From Candidatus Babeliales bacterium (lineage in GTDB: Bacteria > Babelota > Babeliae > Babelales > JABDEC01), in the NCBI GenBank assembly GCA_031292305.1, contig JARLHJ010000012.1, positions 1 to 64,000 on the forward strand: a stretch of 64,000 bases of DNA, in the 5' to 3' direction. Positions 12,626 through 56,352 of this stretch are shown one piece after another (position 1 is the stretch's first letter; the number at the start of each line of letters is the position of its first letter). The notes beneath the pieces were generated by a model, which worked only from the letters and a program-made list of their open reading frames with translations, was not told the DNA's origin and searched no databases. The position numbers were made by a program, and so were the translations under genes.

Positions 12626-14257
12626 ATGCAAAATAAATTAAAGAAGCTATTTATCTCATTTTTAATATTATTTGGTTCTAATAATGCAATGGATAAGGTG
12701 CAGTCTAATTTTAGTGAAGAAAAAGAAGAAAAAATTCATATGTTGGGTGTGCCTACATCTCATGTTCCAGTAAACCCTGTATTAAGCATGCCAATACCAG
12801 TAAAGCAGACAGAGAAAAAAGAAAATTCTCAAATACCCAACCTATTGCAAAGCAAACCCGAATTAGAAGAAAAAGTTCAGGATGTGTTGCATCTTGTAAA
12901 GAATGCTCGTGAAAATTTCAAAAAAATAAATGTTAAAAATATTGATAAACTTGAAATTTTTGTAGATCCAAAAGATAAAAGTAAAAAAGAACTAGATGAA
13001 ATTAAAGAGAATGCTTTGAGTCATAAAGAAGAACTTGATGAAAATCAAAACGTAGATTCAGTAACAATAGAAAAAATTAGTGAACCCAATTTTGAAAATG
13101 GTTTATGGTACTTAGATTTAGCAATTAAAAAAATGCAATCTAAGCCTGCAAATAATAAGGTAAATTCTATTGAAGTAGTAAATAAGGATATAAAGGAGAT
13201 TGAAAATATTTTTAATAATATCGAATCAAATCTTACATTAATATTCGAGCAAGTTAAAGCAAAAATTGCACTTCTTAATTCACTTAAAATAAATGAAAAA
13301 GAAAAAGATTCTAAAGATATTAATAATCATACTGATATAAATATTAAGCAGTTAGGTAATATTTTTGAAAGCTGGAATAATATAAAAAAACGTGAAATTA
13401 AAGCATTTGCAGAACTTAAGCAAGAAGTTGCAACACAAGCAATGATAGCAAAAAAACCAAACATTGATGTGCCAAAGAAAGAAGTTGAGGAAAAAAAATC
13501 AGATGAAACATTCACAAACAAACCAATAAAACCACCACTTTTGAATCCTAAGCCGATTAAAATTATAGAAAAGCCAACATCCATATTAAAACCAGATATA
13601 AAAAAAGAACCAGAACTAAAAACTAATGGAGACTATGAAAAGCTTCAATCTGATTGGGAGCAAGCCAAAGGTAGTGAGAAAACAAAATTATTTGCTGAAT
13701 TACAAGTTTATAAAATTAAACACAAAATGAAGTTTAATTTGAATAACGTGGATTATAGAGTAGGTTCTAAAGAACGTATAGCTAAAGCTATAGAATTATT
13801 TAAAGATAAGCCCGGAGCAGAGAATCTTATTAAGAAAATTATTTTACAAGGTTCAACTAATACTCCCGGAAATTTGAGAGTGGCTATAGGAGCAGCATAT
13901 GAATTACTAATGGGATTACAATTAACAGAAGAAGGTCAAACAGTAATTGGGTTTGGAAGTGTATACACTTCCAAAAAAATCAACAGAAAATTTGAATATG
14001 ACATAGAAACCAATGAAACATTAATAGAATGTAAACATTGGAATTGGTCAGATAACCAAAATCGAAAAATTGCAGAAATTCAAAGAGATTTTGAAGAAAG
14101 AAAAAACCTTGCAAATGAGCAACAAAAAGAGTTTATTTTAATTTCTAAAGAAGACATTCCTGAAAGGTTAAAATTGTGGCTTGTAAATAAGAAAATTTCA
14201 TATTCAATAATTCCTAAGCCTGCAAGTATGTACGCAAAAACTTTTGGAAAAGGATAA
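12626..14257 (+). CDS. Large lysine/glutamate-rich secreted protein (543 aa), hypothetical
   Basis: Signal peptide. A long charged coiled-coil-like middle contains a PKP-rich segment (KPIKPPLLNPKPIKIIEKP). The last roughly 200 aa look globular. Confidence 0.5.
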   Translation: MQNKLKKLFISFLILFGSNNAMDKVQSNFSEEKEEKIHMLGVPTSHVPVNPVLSMPIPVKQTEKKENSQIPNLLQSKPELEEKVQDVLHLVKNARENFKKINVKNIDKLEIFVDPKDKSKKELDEIKENALSHKEELDENQNVDSVTIEKISEPNFENGLWYLDLAIKKMQSKPANNKVNSIEVVNKDIKEIENIFNNIESNLTLIFEQVKAKIALLNSLKINEKEKDSKDINNHTDINIKQLGNIFESWNNIKKREIKAFAELKQEVATQAMIAKKPNIDVPKKEVEEKKSDETFTNKPIKPPLLNPKPIKIIEKPTSILKPDIKKEPELKTNGDYEKLQSDWEQAKGSEKTKLFAELQVYKIKHKMKFNLNNVDYRVGSKERIAKAIELFKDKPGAENLIKKIILQGSTNTPGNLRVAIGAAYELLMGLQLTEEGQTVIGFGSVYTSKKINRKFEYDIETNETLIECKHWNWSDNQNRKIAEIQRDFEERKNLANEQQKEFILISKEDIPERLKLWLVNKKISYSIIPKPASMYAKTFGKG

Positions 14258-19590: not shown

Positions 19591-19765
19591 GTGCTATTTT
19601 TTAAAAAAACACTATTATAGAGCAATTATTCTCAATCTGGCTGACACCTAGGACAAAAATAGATAAAATAGTTTCAAATTTGTTGCAATTAGAAAACAAT
19701 ATATGTTATCCTTGAATTAATAATGCTTTATTGTAAGGCATACTTAAATTAAAAAGGAGTACAAA

Positions 19766-20593
19766 ATGAAAAAATTTAAATTGGCTATGTTAGTCTCATT
19801 ATTGGCAGTTTCCGGTAATTTAATGACAGATGATACAGTTGCAACTTCTGATTCATCATCTGCAACTCCAGCTGCAAGTACTGATAGTTCATCAAGTTCA
19901 TCAACAACTACACCTGCAACAAGTTCTGATGTTGCAGTGGCTATTTCAACAACAACTACAAGTCCAGATGCGCCAGCGGCTACGCCTGTAGACACACCTG
20001 TAGTAGCTTCAGCTTCGGTAGTAGATAGTTCAGCTATAGCTACTCTAGATGCATCTACAACTCCAGAGACAATAGCACAAGACAATAAAGATTTACAAGC
20101 TTCTGGTGATGCAGTAAAAGCTTCAGAAACAGAAGCAGTTGCTACTGATGCAGAAGTATCAAAATCAGAAACAGATGTAAAAGATGCTAAAGTTGATCAA
20201 GCTCAAGCAACTACTCCAGATGAAAAAGTTGCAGCTACAACAGTAGTTGAATTAGCTAAGCAAGAATTAGATGCAACTAAAGAAGTTGCGAAATCTGTTA
20301 AAAACTTAACTTCAACAAAAAAAGATCTTAACACTAAAATTAAAACTTTAGTTAAGGCAAAAGTTGATTTAAAAGCAGCAGTTAATTCAAAAGAGAAAGA
20401 AAAAAAGGCTGCTGAAATTAAAAAAGCTCAACTAGCGTTAGATCAAATAAAAGCTTCAATTAAGCAAGCTCAAGTACAATATGATGCTCTTAAAGCTAAA
20501 TCAAAAGTAATTAAAAATAATCTAGTGGCTGCAAAAACTAAGTTTAAAGCACGTAAGAAAAATAATGTAGGCAGCAGACCAGTTAAGAAGTAA
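19766..20593 (+). CDS. Secreted low-complexity protein: Ser/Thr/Ala/Asp-rich N-terminal half, Lys/Ala-rich coiled-coil C-terminal half (275 aa)
   Basis: RBS AAAGGAG. Signal peptide MKKFKLAMLVSLLAVSGNLMT. Composition was read directly. The antisense ORF 19744..20085 is an artefact of the repeats. Confidence 0.5.
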   Translation: MKKFKLAMLVSLLAVSGNLMTDDTVATSDSSSATPAASTDSSSSSSTTTPATSSDVAVAISTTTTSPDAPAATPVDTPVVASASVVDSSAIATLDASTTPETIAQDNKDLQASGDAVKASETEAVATDAEVSKSETDVKDAKVDQAQATTPDEKVAATTVVELAKQELDATKEVAKSVKNLTSTKKDLNTKIKTLVKAKVDLKAAVNSKEKEKKAAEIKKAQLALDQIKASIKQAQVQYDALKAKSKVIKNNLVAAKTKFKARKKNNVGSRPVKK

Positions 20594-44348: not shown

Positions 44349-45311
44349 TTATAGTTTAAAATTTTCTTTTTCTAAAGTTATTTTTTCCCACATTGTTACG
44401 GTTCCATCTTTATAAGCTGCAGCTAAAAATTGTTCATCAGATGTATGTGATATCGAGTTAAGGGTAATTGAAAGATCATTAAATAATTTTTTTATAATAA
44501 AATTATATTCATAATAAACTAGAGTATTAAATGTTGGTTCATTTGAAATATAACATTCTGAATGTTGTGTTTGAGGTTTTGCCCAAAGTAAAAAATCTAC
44601 TTTATTAACAGTAGATTTAAAGATTGTTAATTTTTTAGTTTTTAATTCACATATTCTAATTGTGTTATCTATTGCAATAGTACCTAAAAATAAAGAATCA
44701 TCTGACCAGGTGATTGACCTAATAGGTAAAGGCATTTTAACTTCTTTAATTTTTTTTTCTGATGAAATATCCCAAATTATTATCTTATTATTATAAGAAG
44801 ATGCTAATTGTGAATTATCAGGTGACCATGCAATAGCATAAGTAAATCCTTCGAAATCCTTTAAAAATTTATGTTTATCCAGTTGCAGATTAATTTTATC
44901 AAGTTTTAAAATTAATATAGAATTAATGCCTCCAATAGCTAATCTATTATCAGAAGACCATTTTAAATATTTAATAACATACTTGGAGTTATTTTCAAAA
45001 ATTAAATCCAAATCAGTTATTATTTCTCCTTTTGTGTCAGATATTTTAATTACCCCATCTTGCCCCCCTGAAGCTAGTAGATCATTATTTGACCAGTCTA
45101 CACAATTAACTTGTGATTCATGCTTCAATGTTGAAATTTTTCTATATGTATATGCTGGGTGTTTATAATTTCGTTCTTTTAATTGTTTATAAATATCATC
45201 TCGCTCTTTTACGGCAACATTTAATTGTTTAAAAGCATCTACAGTAGAAATATCAGCGCTTTTAAGCGTAATACACAAAGTTAATAGAAGAAGAATAATT
45301 ATTTGTTTCAT
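44349..45311 (-). CDS. Secreted WD40-repeat protein (320 aa)
   Basis: Signal peptide. The repeat …NCVDWSNNDLLASGGQDGVIKISD… and others ending in WD/WE-like dipeptides. Confidence 0.6.
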   Translation of the reverse strand: MKQIIILLLLTLCITLKSADISTVDAFKQLNVAVKERDDIYKQLKERNYKHPAYTYRKISTLKHESQVNCVDWSNNDLLASGGQDGVIKISDTKGEIITDLDLIFENNSKYVIKYLKWSSDNRLAIGGINSILILKLDKINLQLDKHKFLKDFEGFTYAIAWSPDNSQLASSYNNKIIIWDISSEKKIKEVKMPLPIRSITWSDDSLFLGTIAIDNTIRICELKTKKLTIFKSTVNKVDFLLWAKPQTQHSECYISNEPTFNTLVYYEYNFIIKKLFNDLSITLNSISHTSDEQFLAAAYKDGTVTMWEKITLEKENFKL

Positions 45312-51525: not shown

Positions 51526-51649
51526 GCAAGGTTTTAAAAACTCTATATAGTTACATTACTCAGATTGAATAATTTTCAACAAAAATAGCATTAGAGTCTT
51601 GTTTTCTATCTTTATAATATGTTACCCTTGAATTAAAGAAGGGGAGCAC

Positions 51650-54382
51650 ATGGAAATAAAAAAGATAATATTTATTGTTTTGGTTGCATTTATTACCAGC
51701 GAAAACCTATTTGCTGCTGGCTTTAATTTAAATATAGTTAATAAAAGTACAAAAACGATTTGGGTACAATCGCAAAAAGATACACGTGTAGGGTATAATT
51801 ATATTCCAGGTAGTTTAATACCTGTTAACTCTAACATGACTCAAACTTTGTCTTCTGAAGTATCTAGTGTTCCTTATTATTTTTTCTATTCCAATGTAAG
51901 TAATGCTCCAAGTATGGCACAAATTACATTTGACGCATCAGGATTTACTGCAAATTCTAATCCCCTAGGATTTCCAATAAAAACTAACTATTTATATCAA
52001 TTTGATAATACTCAATTGACGCAAAAGCCAAGTGATTTTACAATTTATGTAACTGACCCTACTTGTAATTATAATGCGTCAGCGCCTGCTTGGGATTACA
52101 GTGTTGATAGTAATGGAAATGCTTCAAATTTTAAATGTGTTGCTCAGGAAAATTCAATAACTGCAGGTCATTTTAATTTTCAAAATAATACTAACCAAGA
52201 TGCCATTTCTATTACAGGATTTAATCCTGGTTTTGGGTCATGTACACCTGGTTTACCAACCGGAATAGCGCATGGCAATAGTGCTAGTTTTGATGCTTGG
52301 TGCACAATTAATTCTGCGGGCTCTATTCAATACACACCTATAGGTGGTAGTGCACAAACTATAAGTTTAAAAAATATAAATACAACAGATACATATTTTC
52401 AAATTACATTTAACCAAAGTAGTGTTACTTTAAATTCGGGTACAACTAGTGGAAGTTACCCTAATGCAATTGGTACATTTACATATGTATCACCGACTGC
52501 TACTGCATCAGTAACAACAACTTTGCCTGCAGTAACAACTCCCACACCGACACCAGTTGCAACCACACCTTCAATAAATTCAATATCAGTAGGGCATTTT
52601 AATTTTACAAATAATACCAAACAAGATGTAATTTCTATCAATGCATTTAATACAGGTGGGTCCTGCCCAGGACTTGGTTTACCAACAGGCATACAACATG
52701 GCAATAGTGCAGATTTAGATATTTGGTGTGCAATTAATGCCAATGGTTCAATTCAATACACACCTACTGGTGGAAGTGTACAAACAATAAGTTTAAAAAA
52801 TATAAATACAACAGATACATATTTCCAAGTTACATTTAGTCAGACTGGTGTAACTTTAAATTCAGGAAAAAGCAGTGGAAGTTACCCGAATGCAATTGGT
52901 ACATTTACGTATATATCACCAACTCCAACGGTTACCCCGGCGGTTACGGCACCTGTAACACCAGCGGTTACACCGACACCAACTGCAACTCCAATAGTAA
53001 CTCCAACTGCGATACCAGCAGCTACGCCTGTAGCACCAACACCTGCAGTAATACCAACAGTAACACCGACAGTAGCTCCAGCTTCGGTGCCAGCAGTTTC
53101 GCCTGCAGCACCAACACCGACACCAACCGTAACACAAACAGTAACTCCAGTTACGACACCAGCAGTTTCGCCTGCAGTAATAGCAATAACACAAGCAGCT
53201 GCACCTGCAGTAACAACTTCGTCTAGTACAACAATTAAGGCACCAGTGGATGTGCCTACGCAATCAATAGTATCAACTACAACTTCTTCACAAGTAGCAG
53301 ATTCAGAGCCGATTATATTTTTAACGCCAACATTGACTGAAGAACCAGTTGTAAACACACCTTCAAATAATTCCACATCTGTAGGACATTTTAATTTTAC
53401 AAATAATACCAAGCAAGATGTAATTTCTATTAATGCATTTAACACAGGTGGGTCATGCCCAGGACTTGGTTTGCCAACAGGCATACAACATGGCAATAGT
53501 GCAGATTTAGATGTATGGTGTAAAATTAATGCAAATGGCTTTATTCAATACACACTTACATCTGCAAGTGTACAAACAATAAGTTTAAAGAATATAAATT
53601 CAATAGATACATATTTCCAAGTCATATTTAACCAGACTGGTGCAACTTTAAGTTCGGGTACAAGTGCAGGAAGTTATCCTAATGCAATTGGTACATTTAC
53701 GTATGTGTCACCAAACGCAGCTGCTAATTCATCAAATGTTGTACCAATACCAACAATAAATACAACTTTGATTCCAGCAGTAACAGCAACAGCAGCTTCG
53801 GGAATTCTAACACCAACTGTTAGTTCTGCAACTCTATCGCCAGTAATTACAACGTCACCAACCACCGTTTCTAATGTTTCATCTGCATTACCAACGCTTC
53901 TATCAGAGTCTACAACTGCAATTCCTGTAACTTCTAATGATAGTGCTACCTCAGTATTGGGAGTGTCAACACCTATAGTTCCTTCAGTAGCTTCAGTACC
54001 ATTAGCATCAACTTTAGTACCTGCGCCGTTAACGCCAGCTTCCACACCTAAGGCTGCCTTAACTTCTGTAACTCCTATTAAAAAAGCTACTGTGGTTGCA
54101 AAGCCTAGTGTTGTATCAAAAAAACCTATTGTACCCGCTAAGCCTGTTGCAAAAAAACCACTTGTGTCAAAGAAACCAGTACCTGTTTTAAAAAAGCCTG
54201 TAGTAGCAAAAAAACCAATTGTAGTCGCAAGACCTGTAATTAAAGTAACTAATAGTGATGGTTGTAAATTAAGTGGTCAGTCTTGTAAGTGTTCAAATAC
54301 TGGATTATCTGGAACATGTAGTATAGGTGATGCTAAACCTGGTTTATATTGCCATTGTGACGAAGAAGAAGACGATTACTGA
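51650..54382 (+). CDS. Large secreted protein (910 aa) with a conserved N-terminal domain, three copies of a roughly 110-aa GHFNF…TFTY domain, P/T/A/V-rich linkers, a Lys/Pro-rich tail and a Cys-rich C-terminus
   Basis: RBS GAAGGGGAG. Signal peptide. Repeat domains at about 52166-52497, 52592-52923 and 53384-53715. Linkers such as …PTVTPAVTAPVTPAVTPTPTATPIVTP…. Tail …KKPIVPAKPVAKKPLVSKKPVPVLKKPVVAKKPIVVARP… then …CKLSGQSCKCSNTGLSGTCSIGDAKPGLYCHCDEEEDDY. The antisense and off-frame ORFs within it are artefacts. Confidence 0.6.
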   Translation: MEIKKIIFIVLVAFITSENLFAAGFNLNIVNKSTKTIWVQSQKDTRVGYNYIPGSLIPVNSNMTQTLSSEVSSVPYYFFYSNVSNAPSMAQITFDASGFTANSNPLGFPIKTNYLYQFDNTQLTQKPSDFTIYVTDPTCNYNASAPAWDYSVDSNGNASNFKCVAQENSITAGHFNFQNNTNQDAISITGFNPGFGSCTPGLPTGIAHGNSASFDAWCTINSAGSIQYTPIGGSAQTISLKNINTTDTYFQITFNQSSVTLNSGTTSGSYPNAIGTFTYVSPTATASVTTTLPAVTTPTPTPVATTPSINSISVGHFNFTNNTKQDVISINAFNTGGSCPGLGLPTGIQHGNSADLDIWCAINANGSIQYTPTGGSVQTISLKNINTTDTYFQVTFSQTGVTLNSGKSSGSYPNAIGTFTYISPTPTVTPAVTAPVTPAVTPTPTATPIVTPTAIPAATPVAPTPAVIPTVTPTVAPASVPAVSPAAPTPTPTVTQTVTPVTTPAVSPAVIAITQAAAPAVTTSSSTTIKAPVDVPTQSIVSTTTSSQVADSEPIIFLTPTLTEEPVVNTPSNNSTSVGHFNFTNNTKQDVISINAFNTGGSCPGLGLPTGIQHGNSADLDVWCKINANGFIQYTLTSASVQTISLKNINSIDTYFQVIFNQTGATLSSGTSAGSYPNAIGTFTYVSPNAAANSSNVVPIPTINTTLIPAVTATAASGILTPTVSSATLSPVITTSPTTVSNVSSALPTLLSESTTAIPVTSNDSATSVLGVSTPIVPSVASVPLASTLVPAPLTPASTPKAALTSVTPIKKATVVAKPSVVSKKPIVPAKPVAKKPLVSKKPVPVLKKPVVAKKPIVVARPVIKVTNSDGCKLSGQSCKCSNTGLSGTCSIGDAKPGLYCHCDEEEDDY

Positions 54383-54514
54383 TAAGTTGCAAAAGAAGAC
54401 GACTTTGATCAAAAAAAGCCTAACTGAATAAATTATTAAAAAATGCATTACAAACACTTGTTTTATATATTTTAACTATGTTACTCTTAAATAAAAAGTA
54501 AAAAGGGGTAAAGT

Positions 54515-55756
54515 ATGAAATTTATAAATAAGATTTTCCTACTAGGTTGTTTAGGTGTATATGGCTTAAATGGCGCTGGTTTTAATTTAAATATAGTTAA
54601 TAAAAGTACAAAAACTATTTGGGTGCAATCTCAAAAAGACGTACGCGTGGGGTATAATTATACTCCAGGTAGTTTAATACCTGTTAATTCTAATATGACT
54701 CAAACTTTGTATTCTGAAGTGCCTAGTGTTCCTTATTATTTTTTTTATTCCAATGCAAGTAAGGCTCCAAGTATGGCACAAATTACCTTTGATTCAACAG
54801 GATTTACTGCAAGTTCTAATCCAATAGGATTTCCAATAAAAACTAATTATATATATAAATTTGATAATACTAAATTGGTACAAAAGCCAAGTGATTTTAC
54901 CATTTATATTAGTGATCCTAAATGTAGTTATACATCAGCTTCTGCGGTATGGGATTATAATGTTGATGGTGCTGGAAATGCTTCTGGTTTTACTTGTGTA
55001 ACGCCTCCAATAGCCAATGGGCATTTTAATTTTATAAATAACACAGCCGATACAATTTCTATAACAAAATTTAATTCAGGTGCTGGATCATGTACTCCTG
55101 GTTTACCACAAGGTATACAGCCTGGAAATAGCGCAAGTTTTGATGCTTGGTGCCCAATTAATACAAATGGATCTATTGAATTTACGCCAGTGGGCGGCAA
55201 AGCTCAATCAATTGATTTAAAAAAACTGAATACAGATACATACTTTCAAATAAAATTTGATAAAAGTAGTAGTATTGTAACATTAAATTCTGGTACAGAT
55301 GGAAAAACTTATTCAAATCTTGTTACTAGCGTTGCTTATACGCCAGCGCCCCTATCAGCTCTTAATCCTAATTTTACTACAGGGTCTATTAATGGAAAAT
55401 TTAAATATCAAAATGATACAAATGATAAAATAACAATTAAGAGTATTACAAATTGTAGTCCTTGGATGCCAATGTTAAATCCGGGTGATGCTCCATCAAC
55501 AGATTATTGGGGTTGTTCATTTACTAGTCCAATTAGTACGATTACCTATACAACAAGCAAAGATGGTTCAGCAAGTAATACTATAAGAAAAATCACTTTT
55601 TCTAATCTTTTTTCTACAGATAAAGATTTTCGTATTAGGTTTGCAGATAGAGTTTATTTAGAATCCGGACCGGTAGGTACAGGTGTGGCTTCTGATGCTA
55701 ATAAAACTATAGCATGGCCTCGTATATTAGCTTCTACAGTTTATCCTGCATCATAA
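54515..55756 (+). CDS. Secreted paralog (413 aa) of the 51650 protein: same N-terminal domain plus one GHFNF-type domain and a distinct C-terminal region
   Basis: RBS AAAAGGGGTAAAG. The first roughly 165 aa are about 90% identical to the upstream gene (AGFNLNIVNKSTKTIWVQSQKD…). Then …GHFNFINNTADTISITKFNSGAGSCTPGLPQGIQPGNSASFDAWCPIN…. Confidence 0.6.
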   Translation: MKFINKIFLLGCLGVYGLNGAGFNLNIVNKSTKTIWVQSQKDVRVGYNYTPGSLIPVNSNMTQTLYSEVPSVPYYFFYSNASKAPSMAQITFDSTGFTASSNPIGFPIKTNYIYKFDNTKLVQKPSDFTIYISDPKCSYTSASAVWDYNVDGAGNASGFTCVTPPIANGHFNFINNTADTISITKFNSGAGSCTPGLPQGIQPGNSASFDAWCPINTNGSIEFTPVGGKAQSIDLKKLNTDTYFQIKFDKSSSIVTLNSGTDGKTYSNLVTSVAYTPAPLSALNPNFTTGSINGKFKYQNDTNDKITIKSITNCSPWMPMLNPGDAPSTDYWGCSFTSPISTITYTTSKDGSASNTIRKITFSNLFSTDKDFRIRFADRVYLESGPVGTGVASDANKTIAWPRILASTVYPAS

Positions 55757-55779
55757 TGTATTAGAGCTTATAAATTACT

Positions 55780-55813
55780 AAGGGATTGATATTAAATTTA
55801 ATATCAATCCCTT
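55780..55813. terminator. Perfect 34-nt palindrome (AAGGGATTGATATTAA-AT-TTAATATCAATCCCTT), bidirectional terminator
   Basis: Exact inverted repeat between convergent genes. Confidence 0.5.
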
Positions 55814-55819
55814 ATAAGT

Positions 55820-56080
55820 TTAATCTTTTTTGTGAATCTCAGATCTGTTGTGAATTATAGATTGATTTTTTTTAGATAAATAACTGTTTAATAAAGCTAT
55901 AAATTTGCTAAACAATCCACCTAAATATATGCCATAAATTGTTAAAACAAAGCCTGTTATTAAAAGAGGGTAATATAAAATTTTCATTAAAAAACCTGAA
56001 ATGAAAAGCAATATTGATACCCCAATTAAAACTAAAAATGAACCTTTATAGCTATCTGGTAAATTGTTTAAAAAATTCAT
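55820..56080 (-). CDS. Small 2-TM membrane protein (86 aa), paralog of 56101..56352
   Basis: …GSFLVLIGVSILLFISGFLMKILYYPLLITGFVLTIYGIY… is about 50% identical to its neighbour. Basic/His-containing tail. Confidence 0.45.
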   Translation of the reverse strand: MNFLNNLPDSYKGSFLVLIGVSILLFISGFLMKILYYPLLITGFVLTIYGIYLGGLFSKFIALLNSYLSKKNQSIIHNRSEIHKKD

Positions 56081-56100: not shown

Positions 56101-56352
56101 TTATTTTTTATGTTCGTGGCTTTTATGATGAGATGATTTACTTTTAGGTAAGTATTTATTTAATACCTTAACATTATCAAAAACTTCGCATTCATATAAA
56201 CCATAAACAACGAATCCAATTCCAGCTATTAACAATGGATAAAATAAAATTTTAGTAATAATACCAGAAATGAAAAGCAAGAATGTTACGCCAATTAAGA
56301 CTAAAAATAATCCGTGTTGTGCTTGTTTAGATAAGTTCTTGAATGAGTTCAT
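56101..56352 (-). CDS. Small 2-TM membrane protein (83 aa), paralog of 55820..56080
   Basis: …HGLFLVLIGVTFLLFISGIITKILFYPLLIAGIGFVVYGLY…. The tail SSHHKSHEHKK is His-rich. Confidence 0.45.
   Translation of the reverse strand: MNSFKNLSKQAQHGLFLVLIGVTFLLFISGIITKILFYPLLIAGIGFVVYGLYECEVFDNVKVLNKYLPKSKSSHHKSHEHKK

Follow-up and report, generated by a model that had tools for sequence, protein, structure and literature searches.

The question raised by this locus is what two adjacent genes, encoding proteins built from repeated domains and having no recognisable relatives, are doing in the genome of a Candidatus Babeliales bacterium. The genes lie in a 64,000 nucleotide stretch (the window, in which all positions are given; G+C ~28%) of a 69,208-nt contig from a metagenome-assembled genome (MAG). 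Gene 1 (MDR3646264.1, 910 aa) and gene 2 (MDR3646265.1, 413 aa) are both annotated by the National Center for Biotechnology Information (NCBI) as hypothetical protein, and each protein is a singleton cluster. An earlier note, made from the sequence alone, had described them as secreted paralogues and suggested a surface or host-contact role. The reading to which the architecture inclines us, tentatively and with slightly more doubt than confidence, is that the pair are lineage-restricted, Sec-exported, disulfide-stabilised modular proteins, and that the long form would be a tethered stalk displaying a head.

Gene structure and domains

The open reading frame (ORF) calls place the two genes exactly as the earlier note had them, adjacent, on the same strand and 910 and 413 aa in length, and the three modules that it had described in gene 1 are all present (Table 1). 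Composition counts bear out its P/T/A/V linkers, Lys/Pro tail and Cys-rich acidic end, with Pro, Thr, Ala, Val and Ser making up 76-89% of the gene 1 linkers. The description has to be revised in places: gene 2 was given one module and carries two, M4 and M5, of which M5 had been overlooked, and the proteins were called giant, for which 910 aa does not qualify. M5 is related to the other modules at a tblastn E value of 4e-6 and an alignment z of 9.8 against shuffled sequences, and it keeps 23 invariant module positions, including the Cys pair.

Table 1. Features of the gene pair and of the adjoining DNA, with positions in the window.
Feature	Position	Strand	Remarks
Gene 1, 910 aa	51650-54382	+	ORF call; NCBI record
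Gene 1 signal peptide, residues 1-22, MEIKKIIFIVLVAFITSENLFA	51650-51715	+	only hydrophobic window of the protein; cleavage site predicted
Gene 1 N-terminal head domain, residues 23-168	51716-52153	+	predicted all-beta; Cys pair C139/C163
Module M1, residues 170-284	52157-52501	+	predicted 8-strand beta-sandwich; Cys pair C198/C218
Linker 1, residues 285-311, 27 aa, P/T-rich	52502-52582	+	
Module M2, residues 312-426	52583-52927	+	
Linker 2, residues 427-575, 149 aa, P/T/A/V-rich	52928-53374	+	degenerate 75-nt repeats inside
Module M3, residues 576-690	53375-53719	+	nearest copy M2 (87% nt, dS 0.35)
Linker 3, residues 691-808, 118 aa, S/T/P/V-rich	53720-54073	+	
Polycationic Lys/Pro/Val repeat tail, residues 809-866	54074-54247	+	58 aa: 16 K/R, 0 D/E, 11 P, 15 V
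Cys-rich C-terminal knot, residues 867-910, 44 aa	54248-54379	+	6 Cys, 8 D/E; acidic DEEEDDY terminus
Gene 2, 413 aa	54515-55756	+	ORF call; NCBI record
Gene 2 signal peptide, residues 1-20	54515-54574	+	not alignable with that of gene 1
Gene 2 N-terminal head domain, residues 21-164	54575-55006	+	
Module M4, residues 166-279	55010-55351	+	65% identical to M1
Module M5, residues 289-413	55379-55753	+	divergent, 30-36% identity to other modules
Upstream block of gene 1, CTTGTTTT...TATGTTACCCTTGAATTAAA, then GGGGA ribosome-binding site	51598-51638	+	aligns with 54457-54497
Upstream block of gene 2, then GGGG ribosome-binding site	54457-54497	+	aligns with the gene 1 block
MscS-family channel, 1203 aa	47914-51525	+	directly upstream of gene 1; signal peptide; ~550-aa N-terminal coiled-coil region, MscK-like layout
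Palindromic hairpin, perfect 16-bp stem, TAAGGGATTGATATTAAATTTAATATCAATCCCTTA	55779-55814	.	between convergent gene 2 and ORF 55820-56080
Small proteins, tandem paralogues, 86 and 83 aa	55820-56080 and 56101-56352	-	two hydrophobic segments each (FLVLIGV..LLFISG...KIL.YPLLI.G)

Repeats, selection and history of the locus

The repetition is far beyond chance. In the DNA, copies of a 300-nt unit (73-89%) start at 52126, 52552 and 53344 and part of a fourth is present at ~55049, and the first two module copies are reported by Tandem Repeats Finder (TRF) as a 426-nt tandem. The N-domain regions 51716-52015 and 54575-54874 are 90% identical in DNA. This is the 90% identity previously noted for a domain of some 165 aa, and it stands for the first 100 codons; the domain itself is of ~145 aa and over its whole length the two genes share 84.5% nt and 78.5% aa identity.

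The contig comes from a MAG and contains internal repeats as well as low-complexity linkers, across which there are long spurious antisense ORFs. It has to be asked, then, whether the locus is an artefact, in which either a repeat was assembled wrongly or a non-coding stretch of low complexity is open by chance. The antisense ORFs (52456-54045 on the minus strand, 95-204 aa) lie over the P/T linkers and parts of M2 and M3 and are Gly/Val/Ala/Thr-rich or Cys/Arg/Trp-rich; they are due to the repetitive Pro/Thr/Ala/Val codons and are not genes. The copies differ from each other at 13-50% of nucleotides, and third-position changes dominate in every pair. Since even M2 and M3 are only 87% identical in nucleotides, an assembly collapse or expansion is unlikely. 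The ratio of nonsynonymous to synonymous divergence (dN/dS) is 0.22-0.66 among all copies, with 0.22-0.35 for the closer pairs and 0.5-0.66 for the comparisons with M5, which are saturated. These values, all below 1, indicate that the domains are under protein-level constraint, that is, purifying selection. With a ribosome-binding site and a common upstream block at both genes, and with a module that folds confidently in prediction, an artefact is very improbable.

The G+C content at third codon positions (GC3) is 0.13-0.19 in all parts of the two genes, against a mean of 0.19 for the other genes of the window, which indicates that the genes are native and not recent imports; recent horizontal transfer was rejected on this basis. 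The raised G+C at 52-54 kb is due to the Pro, Thr and Ala codons.

Synonymous distances (dS) are greater than 1 for the splits of M5, ~0.9-1.0 for M1-M4 and for the distal N domain, 0.6 for M1/M2 and 0.35 for M2/M3. As an order of events this suggests that M5 split off first, followed by the gene duplication, then by the separation of M1 and M2, and last by that of M2 and M3. The proposal of the earlier note that the family evolves by module duplication is thereby borne out, in that the DNA repeats, the TRF result and the synonymous distances support an evolution through tandem duplication of genes and then of modules.

Within the mature N domain, dS is 0.28 over the first 300 nt (100 codons) and 0.91 over the remainder. 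The rest of the N domain and the adjacent module have a dS of 0.9-1.0 and 71% nt identity. The best explanation for so sharp a step within a domain is a gene-conversion tract between the paralogues. The signal-peptide codons (51650-51715 and 54515-54574) cannot be aligned, though there is conservation on both sides of them, in the upstream block and at the mature N-terminus.

The module fold

Structure prediction on the module, for which the earlier note had asked, returned a confident, generic immunoglobulin (Ig)-like sandwich that belongs to no known sequence family. The AlphaFold2 model of M1, made from an alignment of the five module copies only, has eight strands, with a predicted local distance difference test score (pLDDT) of 93.7 and a predicted template modelling score (pTM) of 0.87. 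The same strand pattern is seen in the full-length model of gene 2, both for M4 (pLDDT 73-85) and, at lower confidence, for M5. The seven to nine strands in two sheets over ~100 residues that define the Ig-like beta-sandwich, a generic fold class and not a homologous family, are present, and the module superposes on known domains of this kind.

The closest solved folds are Caenorhabditis elegans PUD-1/PUD-2 (4jde, score 8.7), the extracellular Ig-like lobes of PepT2 and PepT1 (5a9d, 5a9h, 5a9i; 8.4 and 8.0), the plant S-protein homologue SPH15 (6g7g; 8.1) and pneumolysin domain 4 (7.8), followed by Bacteroides fimbrial proteins, TssJ, pilus chaperones, MSP/ASH domains and actinoporins. None of these shares more than 16% identity with the module. 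In a Foldseek search the gene 2 model matched the two-lobe PepT domain (E 3.6e-4); against a viral library there was no match at E <=1e-3, the weak top ones being uncharacterised giant-virus proteins. On the model, then, the module is a generic Ig-like beta-sandwich outside every known sequence family.

There is exactly one Cys pair, at a spacing of 20-24, in each of the seven domains, which bears out the conserved Cys pairs of the earlier note. This would fit one disulfide per domain and an oxidising compartment. At module positions 10-12, in the first beta-hairpin, all five copies, M5 included, carry the tripeptide N-[ND]-T (gene 1 residues 179-181, 321-323 and 585-587; gene 2 residues 175-177 and 300-302), which may serve as a turn in the structure or as a conserved sequon for glycosylation. 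The N-glycosylation sequons as a whole, whose density per 100 aa is 2.3-2.7 compared with 0.63 for other ORFs, were considered as a possible enrichment and are fully accounted for by the N/S/T-rich composition.

Searches for relatives

With the whole proteins there was no match in Pfam or NCBIfam at E <=1, and with the isolated domains nothing meaningful in Pfam at E <=10. PHROGs gave a single 14-residue match to the whole proteins (E 0.0034), which is not significant, and searches of Protein Data Bank (PDB) sequences with single sequences and with profiles gave nothing below E 0.37, so that the view that the module is not a characterised domain is upheld. The Cys-rich end of gene 1 has no PDB or Pfam match, and no profile hidden Markov model of the Big_*, fn3 and Cna-B families of Pfam matched.

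A profile built from signal peptide, N domain and modules, run with HMMER over 1.84 billion representative proteins, retrieved the two paralogues only; it is these parts that the reliable large-scale search covers, as distinct from the three linkers, the tail and the Cys-rich terminus of gene 1. When genome, metagenome and viral contig collections were scanned with degenerate patterns and tblastn, two alignments being used for each, no relative was found. A word-indexed protein search found gene 2 itself and then nothing, although it missed exact self-matches and its negatives therefore weigh little.

The head domain

The short likenesses between the N domain and the modules (AGFNLNIVN and AGHFNFQNN, QITFD and QITFN) raise the possibility that the head is a sixth, divergent module. 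This was rejected, as hhalign gives a probability of 2.3% and Smith-Waterman alignment a z of <=2 against shuffles. The head domain may be a new fold.

The faint thaumatin flavour that the earlier note had seen in the N domain is not supported. It could be extended to a proposal that the head is a thaumatin-like (PR-5) glucan-binding domain joined to carbohydrate-binding modules (CBM), giving cellulosome-like targeting of glycans such as those of protist cyst walls. Consistent with this are a local likeness of LNIVNKSTKTIWVQSQK to FEIVNRCSYTVWAAASK of thaumatin, at the same N-terminal position, the PT linkers, which are typical of CBM-containing enzymes, and two viral thaumatin-like proteins among the weak Foldseek matches of the module (E 0.09 and 1.6). 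The likeness is confined to 6 identities in 17 aligned residues, however, in a single BLASTP comparison (E 0.014) with thaumatin I. The thaumatin family PF00314 is not matched by the whole proteins at E <=1 or by the isolated N domain and modules at E <=10, no thaumatin chain is among the PDB sequence matches at E <=10, and the PROSITE PS00316 pattern does not occur in the sequences. Thaumatins have 10-16 conserved Cys forming 5-8 disulfides, against 2 Cys in the N domain and 2 in every module. There is also no match to CBM, glycoside hydrolase, cohesin or dockerin families even at E <=10, which places the pair outside the cellulosomal and CBM-linker proteins. On these sequence comparisons thaumatin identity was rejected for the head, and glycan targeting of this kind is highly unlikely.

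Export and the C-terminal tail

Both proteins appear to begin with a Sec-type signal peptide, as had been proposed. This is supported by a basic start and a hydrophobic core at each N-terminus, and by the homology of the mature proteins, which begins exactly at AGFNLN. A lipoprotein signal was also considered for gene 2, where there is an 'LLGC' at residues 9-12. The rule requires [LVI][ASTVI][GAS]C, its Cys placed ~15-35 residues into the protein, and a hydrophobic core of at least 7 ahead of it; here only a relaxed lipobox is present, the Cys at residue 12 is too early and the 5-residue hydrophobic stretch before it is too short, and the possibility was rejected. The gene 1 signal peptide contains no Cys.

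In gene 1 an LPXTG is lacking, the signal peptide is the only hydrophobic window and the C-terminus is acidic, so that it does not have the make-up of a sortase-anchored protein. There is no C-terminal beta-barrel of the autotransporter (type V) kind, the last 100 residues being the Lys/Pro tail and the 44-aa Cys-rich end. Substrates of the type II secretion system carry no sequence signal; they have a Sec or Tat signal peptide, fold in the periplasm and come from a genome with such a system. A putative signal peptide and Cys pairs are seen in these gene products.

One possibility is that the two proteins are soluble secreted effectors, such as type II substrates or cargo of outer-membrane vesicles. 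They would have no attachment to the bacterium, and in the phagosome or the cytoplasm their modules would have host membranes or glycans as ligands. The Dependentiae live as parasites within the cells of protists; they are diderm, their envelope is degenerate and the type II secretion system is conserved among them (PMC4776705). Signal peptides are carried by 44% of the coding sequences of Chromulinavorax, this set is enriched in ORFans, and secreted ORFans and vesicles have been reported (PMC6561590). A signal peptide with no anchor signal, and in gene 2 no tail of any kind, would be in keeping with such a role. However, many unrelated beta-sandwiches match the module as well as do the folds that might indicate binding, and no conserved motif for lipid or sugar binding was identified. 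Long linkers with a polycationic tail, as in gene 1, are also found more typically in surface proteins that are tethered. Free effectors are therefore considered unlikely, though they are a serious alternative.

Against the same background of Dependentiae biology, the pair is best read as Sec-exported envelope or extracellular proteins, and the order of the parts in gene 1, with a head, spaced beta-sandwich beads and a polycationic tail, suggests the tethered stalk. After Sec export the proteins would fold in the oxidising periplasm, and the cationic C-terminal tail of the long form would attach it in or on the envelope by binding anionic envelope polymers or lipids. The ~300 residues of extended linker in this form would then make a flexible stalk, projecting the head by tens of nanometres toward structures of the protist host, and the short form would be a stalk-less, untethered head plus two modules.

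There are several points that weigh against this reading. Cleavage and localisation are read from the sequence alone. No LPXTG, lipobox within the usual rules, C-terminal barrel, transmembrane segment beyond the signal peptide or known sorting domain was found that would give a route across, or an anchor in, the outer membrane. The head domain has a pLDDT below 40 in the full-length gene 2 model, so that no binding site is indicated in the part that would make the contact. The searches, having found no homologues, provide no evidence from conservation or synteny.

The gene 1 tail has a weak match in KPIKPPLLNPKPIKIIEKP, a stretch rich in Lys and Pro within a 543-aa ORF at 12626-14257 on the plus strand. 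This ORF is without a Pfam match and encodes a signal peptide and a Lys/Glu-rich region resembling a coiled coil.

Comparison with known architectures

The overall design, with signal peptide, Ig-like repeats, Pro/Thr linkers and basic tail, is well known; it is the sequences that are orphan. The Gram-positive MSCRAMM-type proteins combine Ig-like repeats with Pro-rich wall-spanning regions, and share with gene 1 the signal peptide, a distinct N-terminal domain, tandem beta-sandwich repeats and a Pro/Thr/Lys-rich C-terminal region. Gene 1 differs in having no LPXTG, no C-terminal membrane segment and no Big, FN3 or Cna-B match, and in belonging to a diderm. PT-box linkers are found in cellulases and cellulosomal scaffoldins, such as CenA and Cex of Cellulomonas fimi, which are likewise secreted and have extended Pro/Thr-rich linkers between small beta-sandwich modules. 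In gene 1, unlike these, no catalytic domain, CBM, cohesin or dockerin was detected, and the linkers are far longer (up to 149 aa) and Ala/Val-rich.

Polycationic Lys/Pro-rich segments occur in the (Lys-Pro)n spacer of TonB and in the C-terminal Lys/Pro/Ala repeats of the mycobacterial HBHA, which bind heparan sulphate. The gene 1 tail resembles these as a run of Lys and Pro with no acidic residues, which would suit either a rigid spacer or a tail that binds polyanions; it differs in its unit, KKPxVx, in being Val-rich and in what comes after it, namely the 6-Cys knot and the acidic tip.

The resemblance to the periplasmic spacer of TonB would also be consistent with the two proteins being structural elements inside the envelope, with the Lys/Pro tail on the peptidoglycan and the modules on the outer membrane. 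Envelope genes adjoin the pair, namely the MscS-family channel and Amidase_3. In such a role the proteins would replace tethers that have not been detected, since no homologues of Lpp, Pal, OmpA or OmpM were found in ten Dependentiae genomes (bioRxiv 10.1101/2021.05.31.446380), and it is the lack of any known outer-membrane tether that makes this possibility of interest. However, ~350 linker residues could span ~100 nm, far beyond the periplasm, and there is neither a lipid anchor nor a beta-barrel. A core tether would moreover be expected throughout the phylum, yet there is no homologue among the 1.84 billion representatives. An internal tether is thus improbable.

The stalk reading has a stronger form, which is about as improbable as the internal tether. 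In this, the head and the module would be two new domain families of a Babeliales-specific host-contact or envelope system, and the tail, the 6-Cys knot and the acidic tip would be an undescribed means of fixing a long stalk protein non-covalently to a diderm envelope that has no lipopolysaccharide and none of the four known tethers. The absence of lipopolysaccharide in Babeliales has been reported (PMC4776705).

The secreted ORFans of Chromulinavorax destructans (PMC6561590) are like this pair in having signal peptides and no recognisable homologues, and in coming from an intracellular parasite of protists. They are a category and not a family, however, and no sequence relation to the pair was detected.

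Upstream regions and genomic neighbourhood

The two genes have in common a 41-nt upstream block, which is a putative promoter. Its core motif, TATGTTAYCCTTRAATWAA, is present ahead of both paralogues, at 51618-51637 and 54477-54496, and with two mismatches at 19702-19721 on the plus strand, upstream of a third gene, ORF 19766-20593. At up to three mismatches there are five matches in the window against 0.48 expected. The motif may be a shared promoter or regulatory element of secreted mucin-like proteins. ORF 19766-20593 encodes a signal-peptide protein, the N-terminal half of which is S/T/P/A-rich and the C-terminal half Lys-rich.

The genes on either side of the pair are ordinary chromosomal genes. 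Downstream of gene 2, on the opposite strand, are two small membrane proteins as well as an Amidase_3 and a RecD2 helicase, and LeuRS, a WD40 protein and ATP synthase delta are found farther from the pair. The perfect hairpin between gene 2 and the first of the small proteins is likely to be a bidirectional terminator. The small tandem paralogues have basic, His/Lys-rich ends and neither has a Pfam match. The WD40 protein, at 44349-45311 on the minus strand, is a eukaryote-like beta-propeller typical of the reported host-interaction repertoire of Dependentiae (PMC4776705). Among the flanking ORFs of at least 150 aa that were scanned within ~15 kb, five have no Pfam match, and no secretion-system, glycosylation or mobile-element genes were recognised.

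Significance

The architecture is conventional, secreted ORFans are many in the phylum and the roles proposed are putative, so that the value of the finding is local to the lineage. Within it, the gene pair is a clean example of parasites building new extracellular proteins through module duplication, and the confident model of the module adds one sequence-orphan family to the Ig-like folds. The Dependentiae are widespread obligate parasites of protists in which host attachment, entry and the organisation of the envelope are largely unknown, and a secreted pair under constraint is a concrete candidate for studies of the cell surface and of contact with the host.

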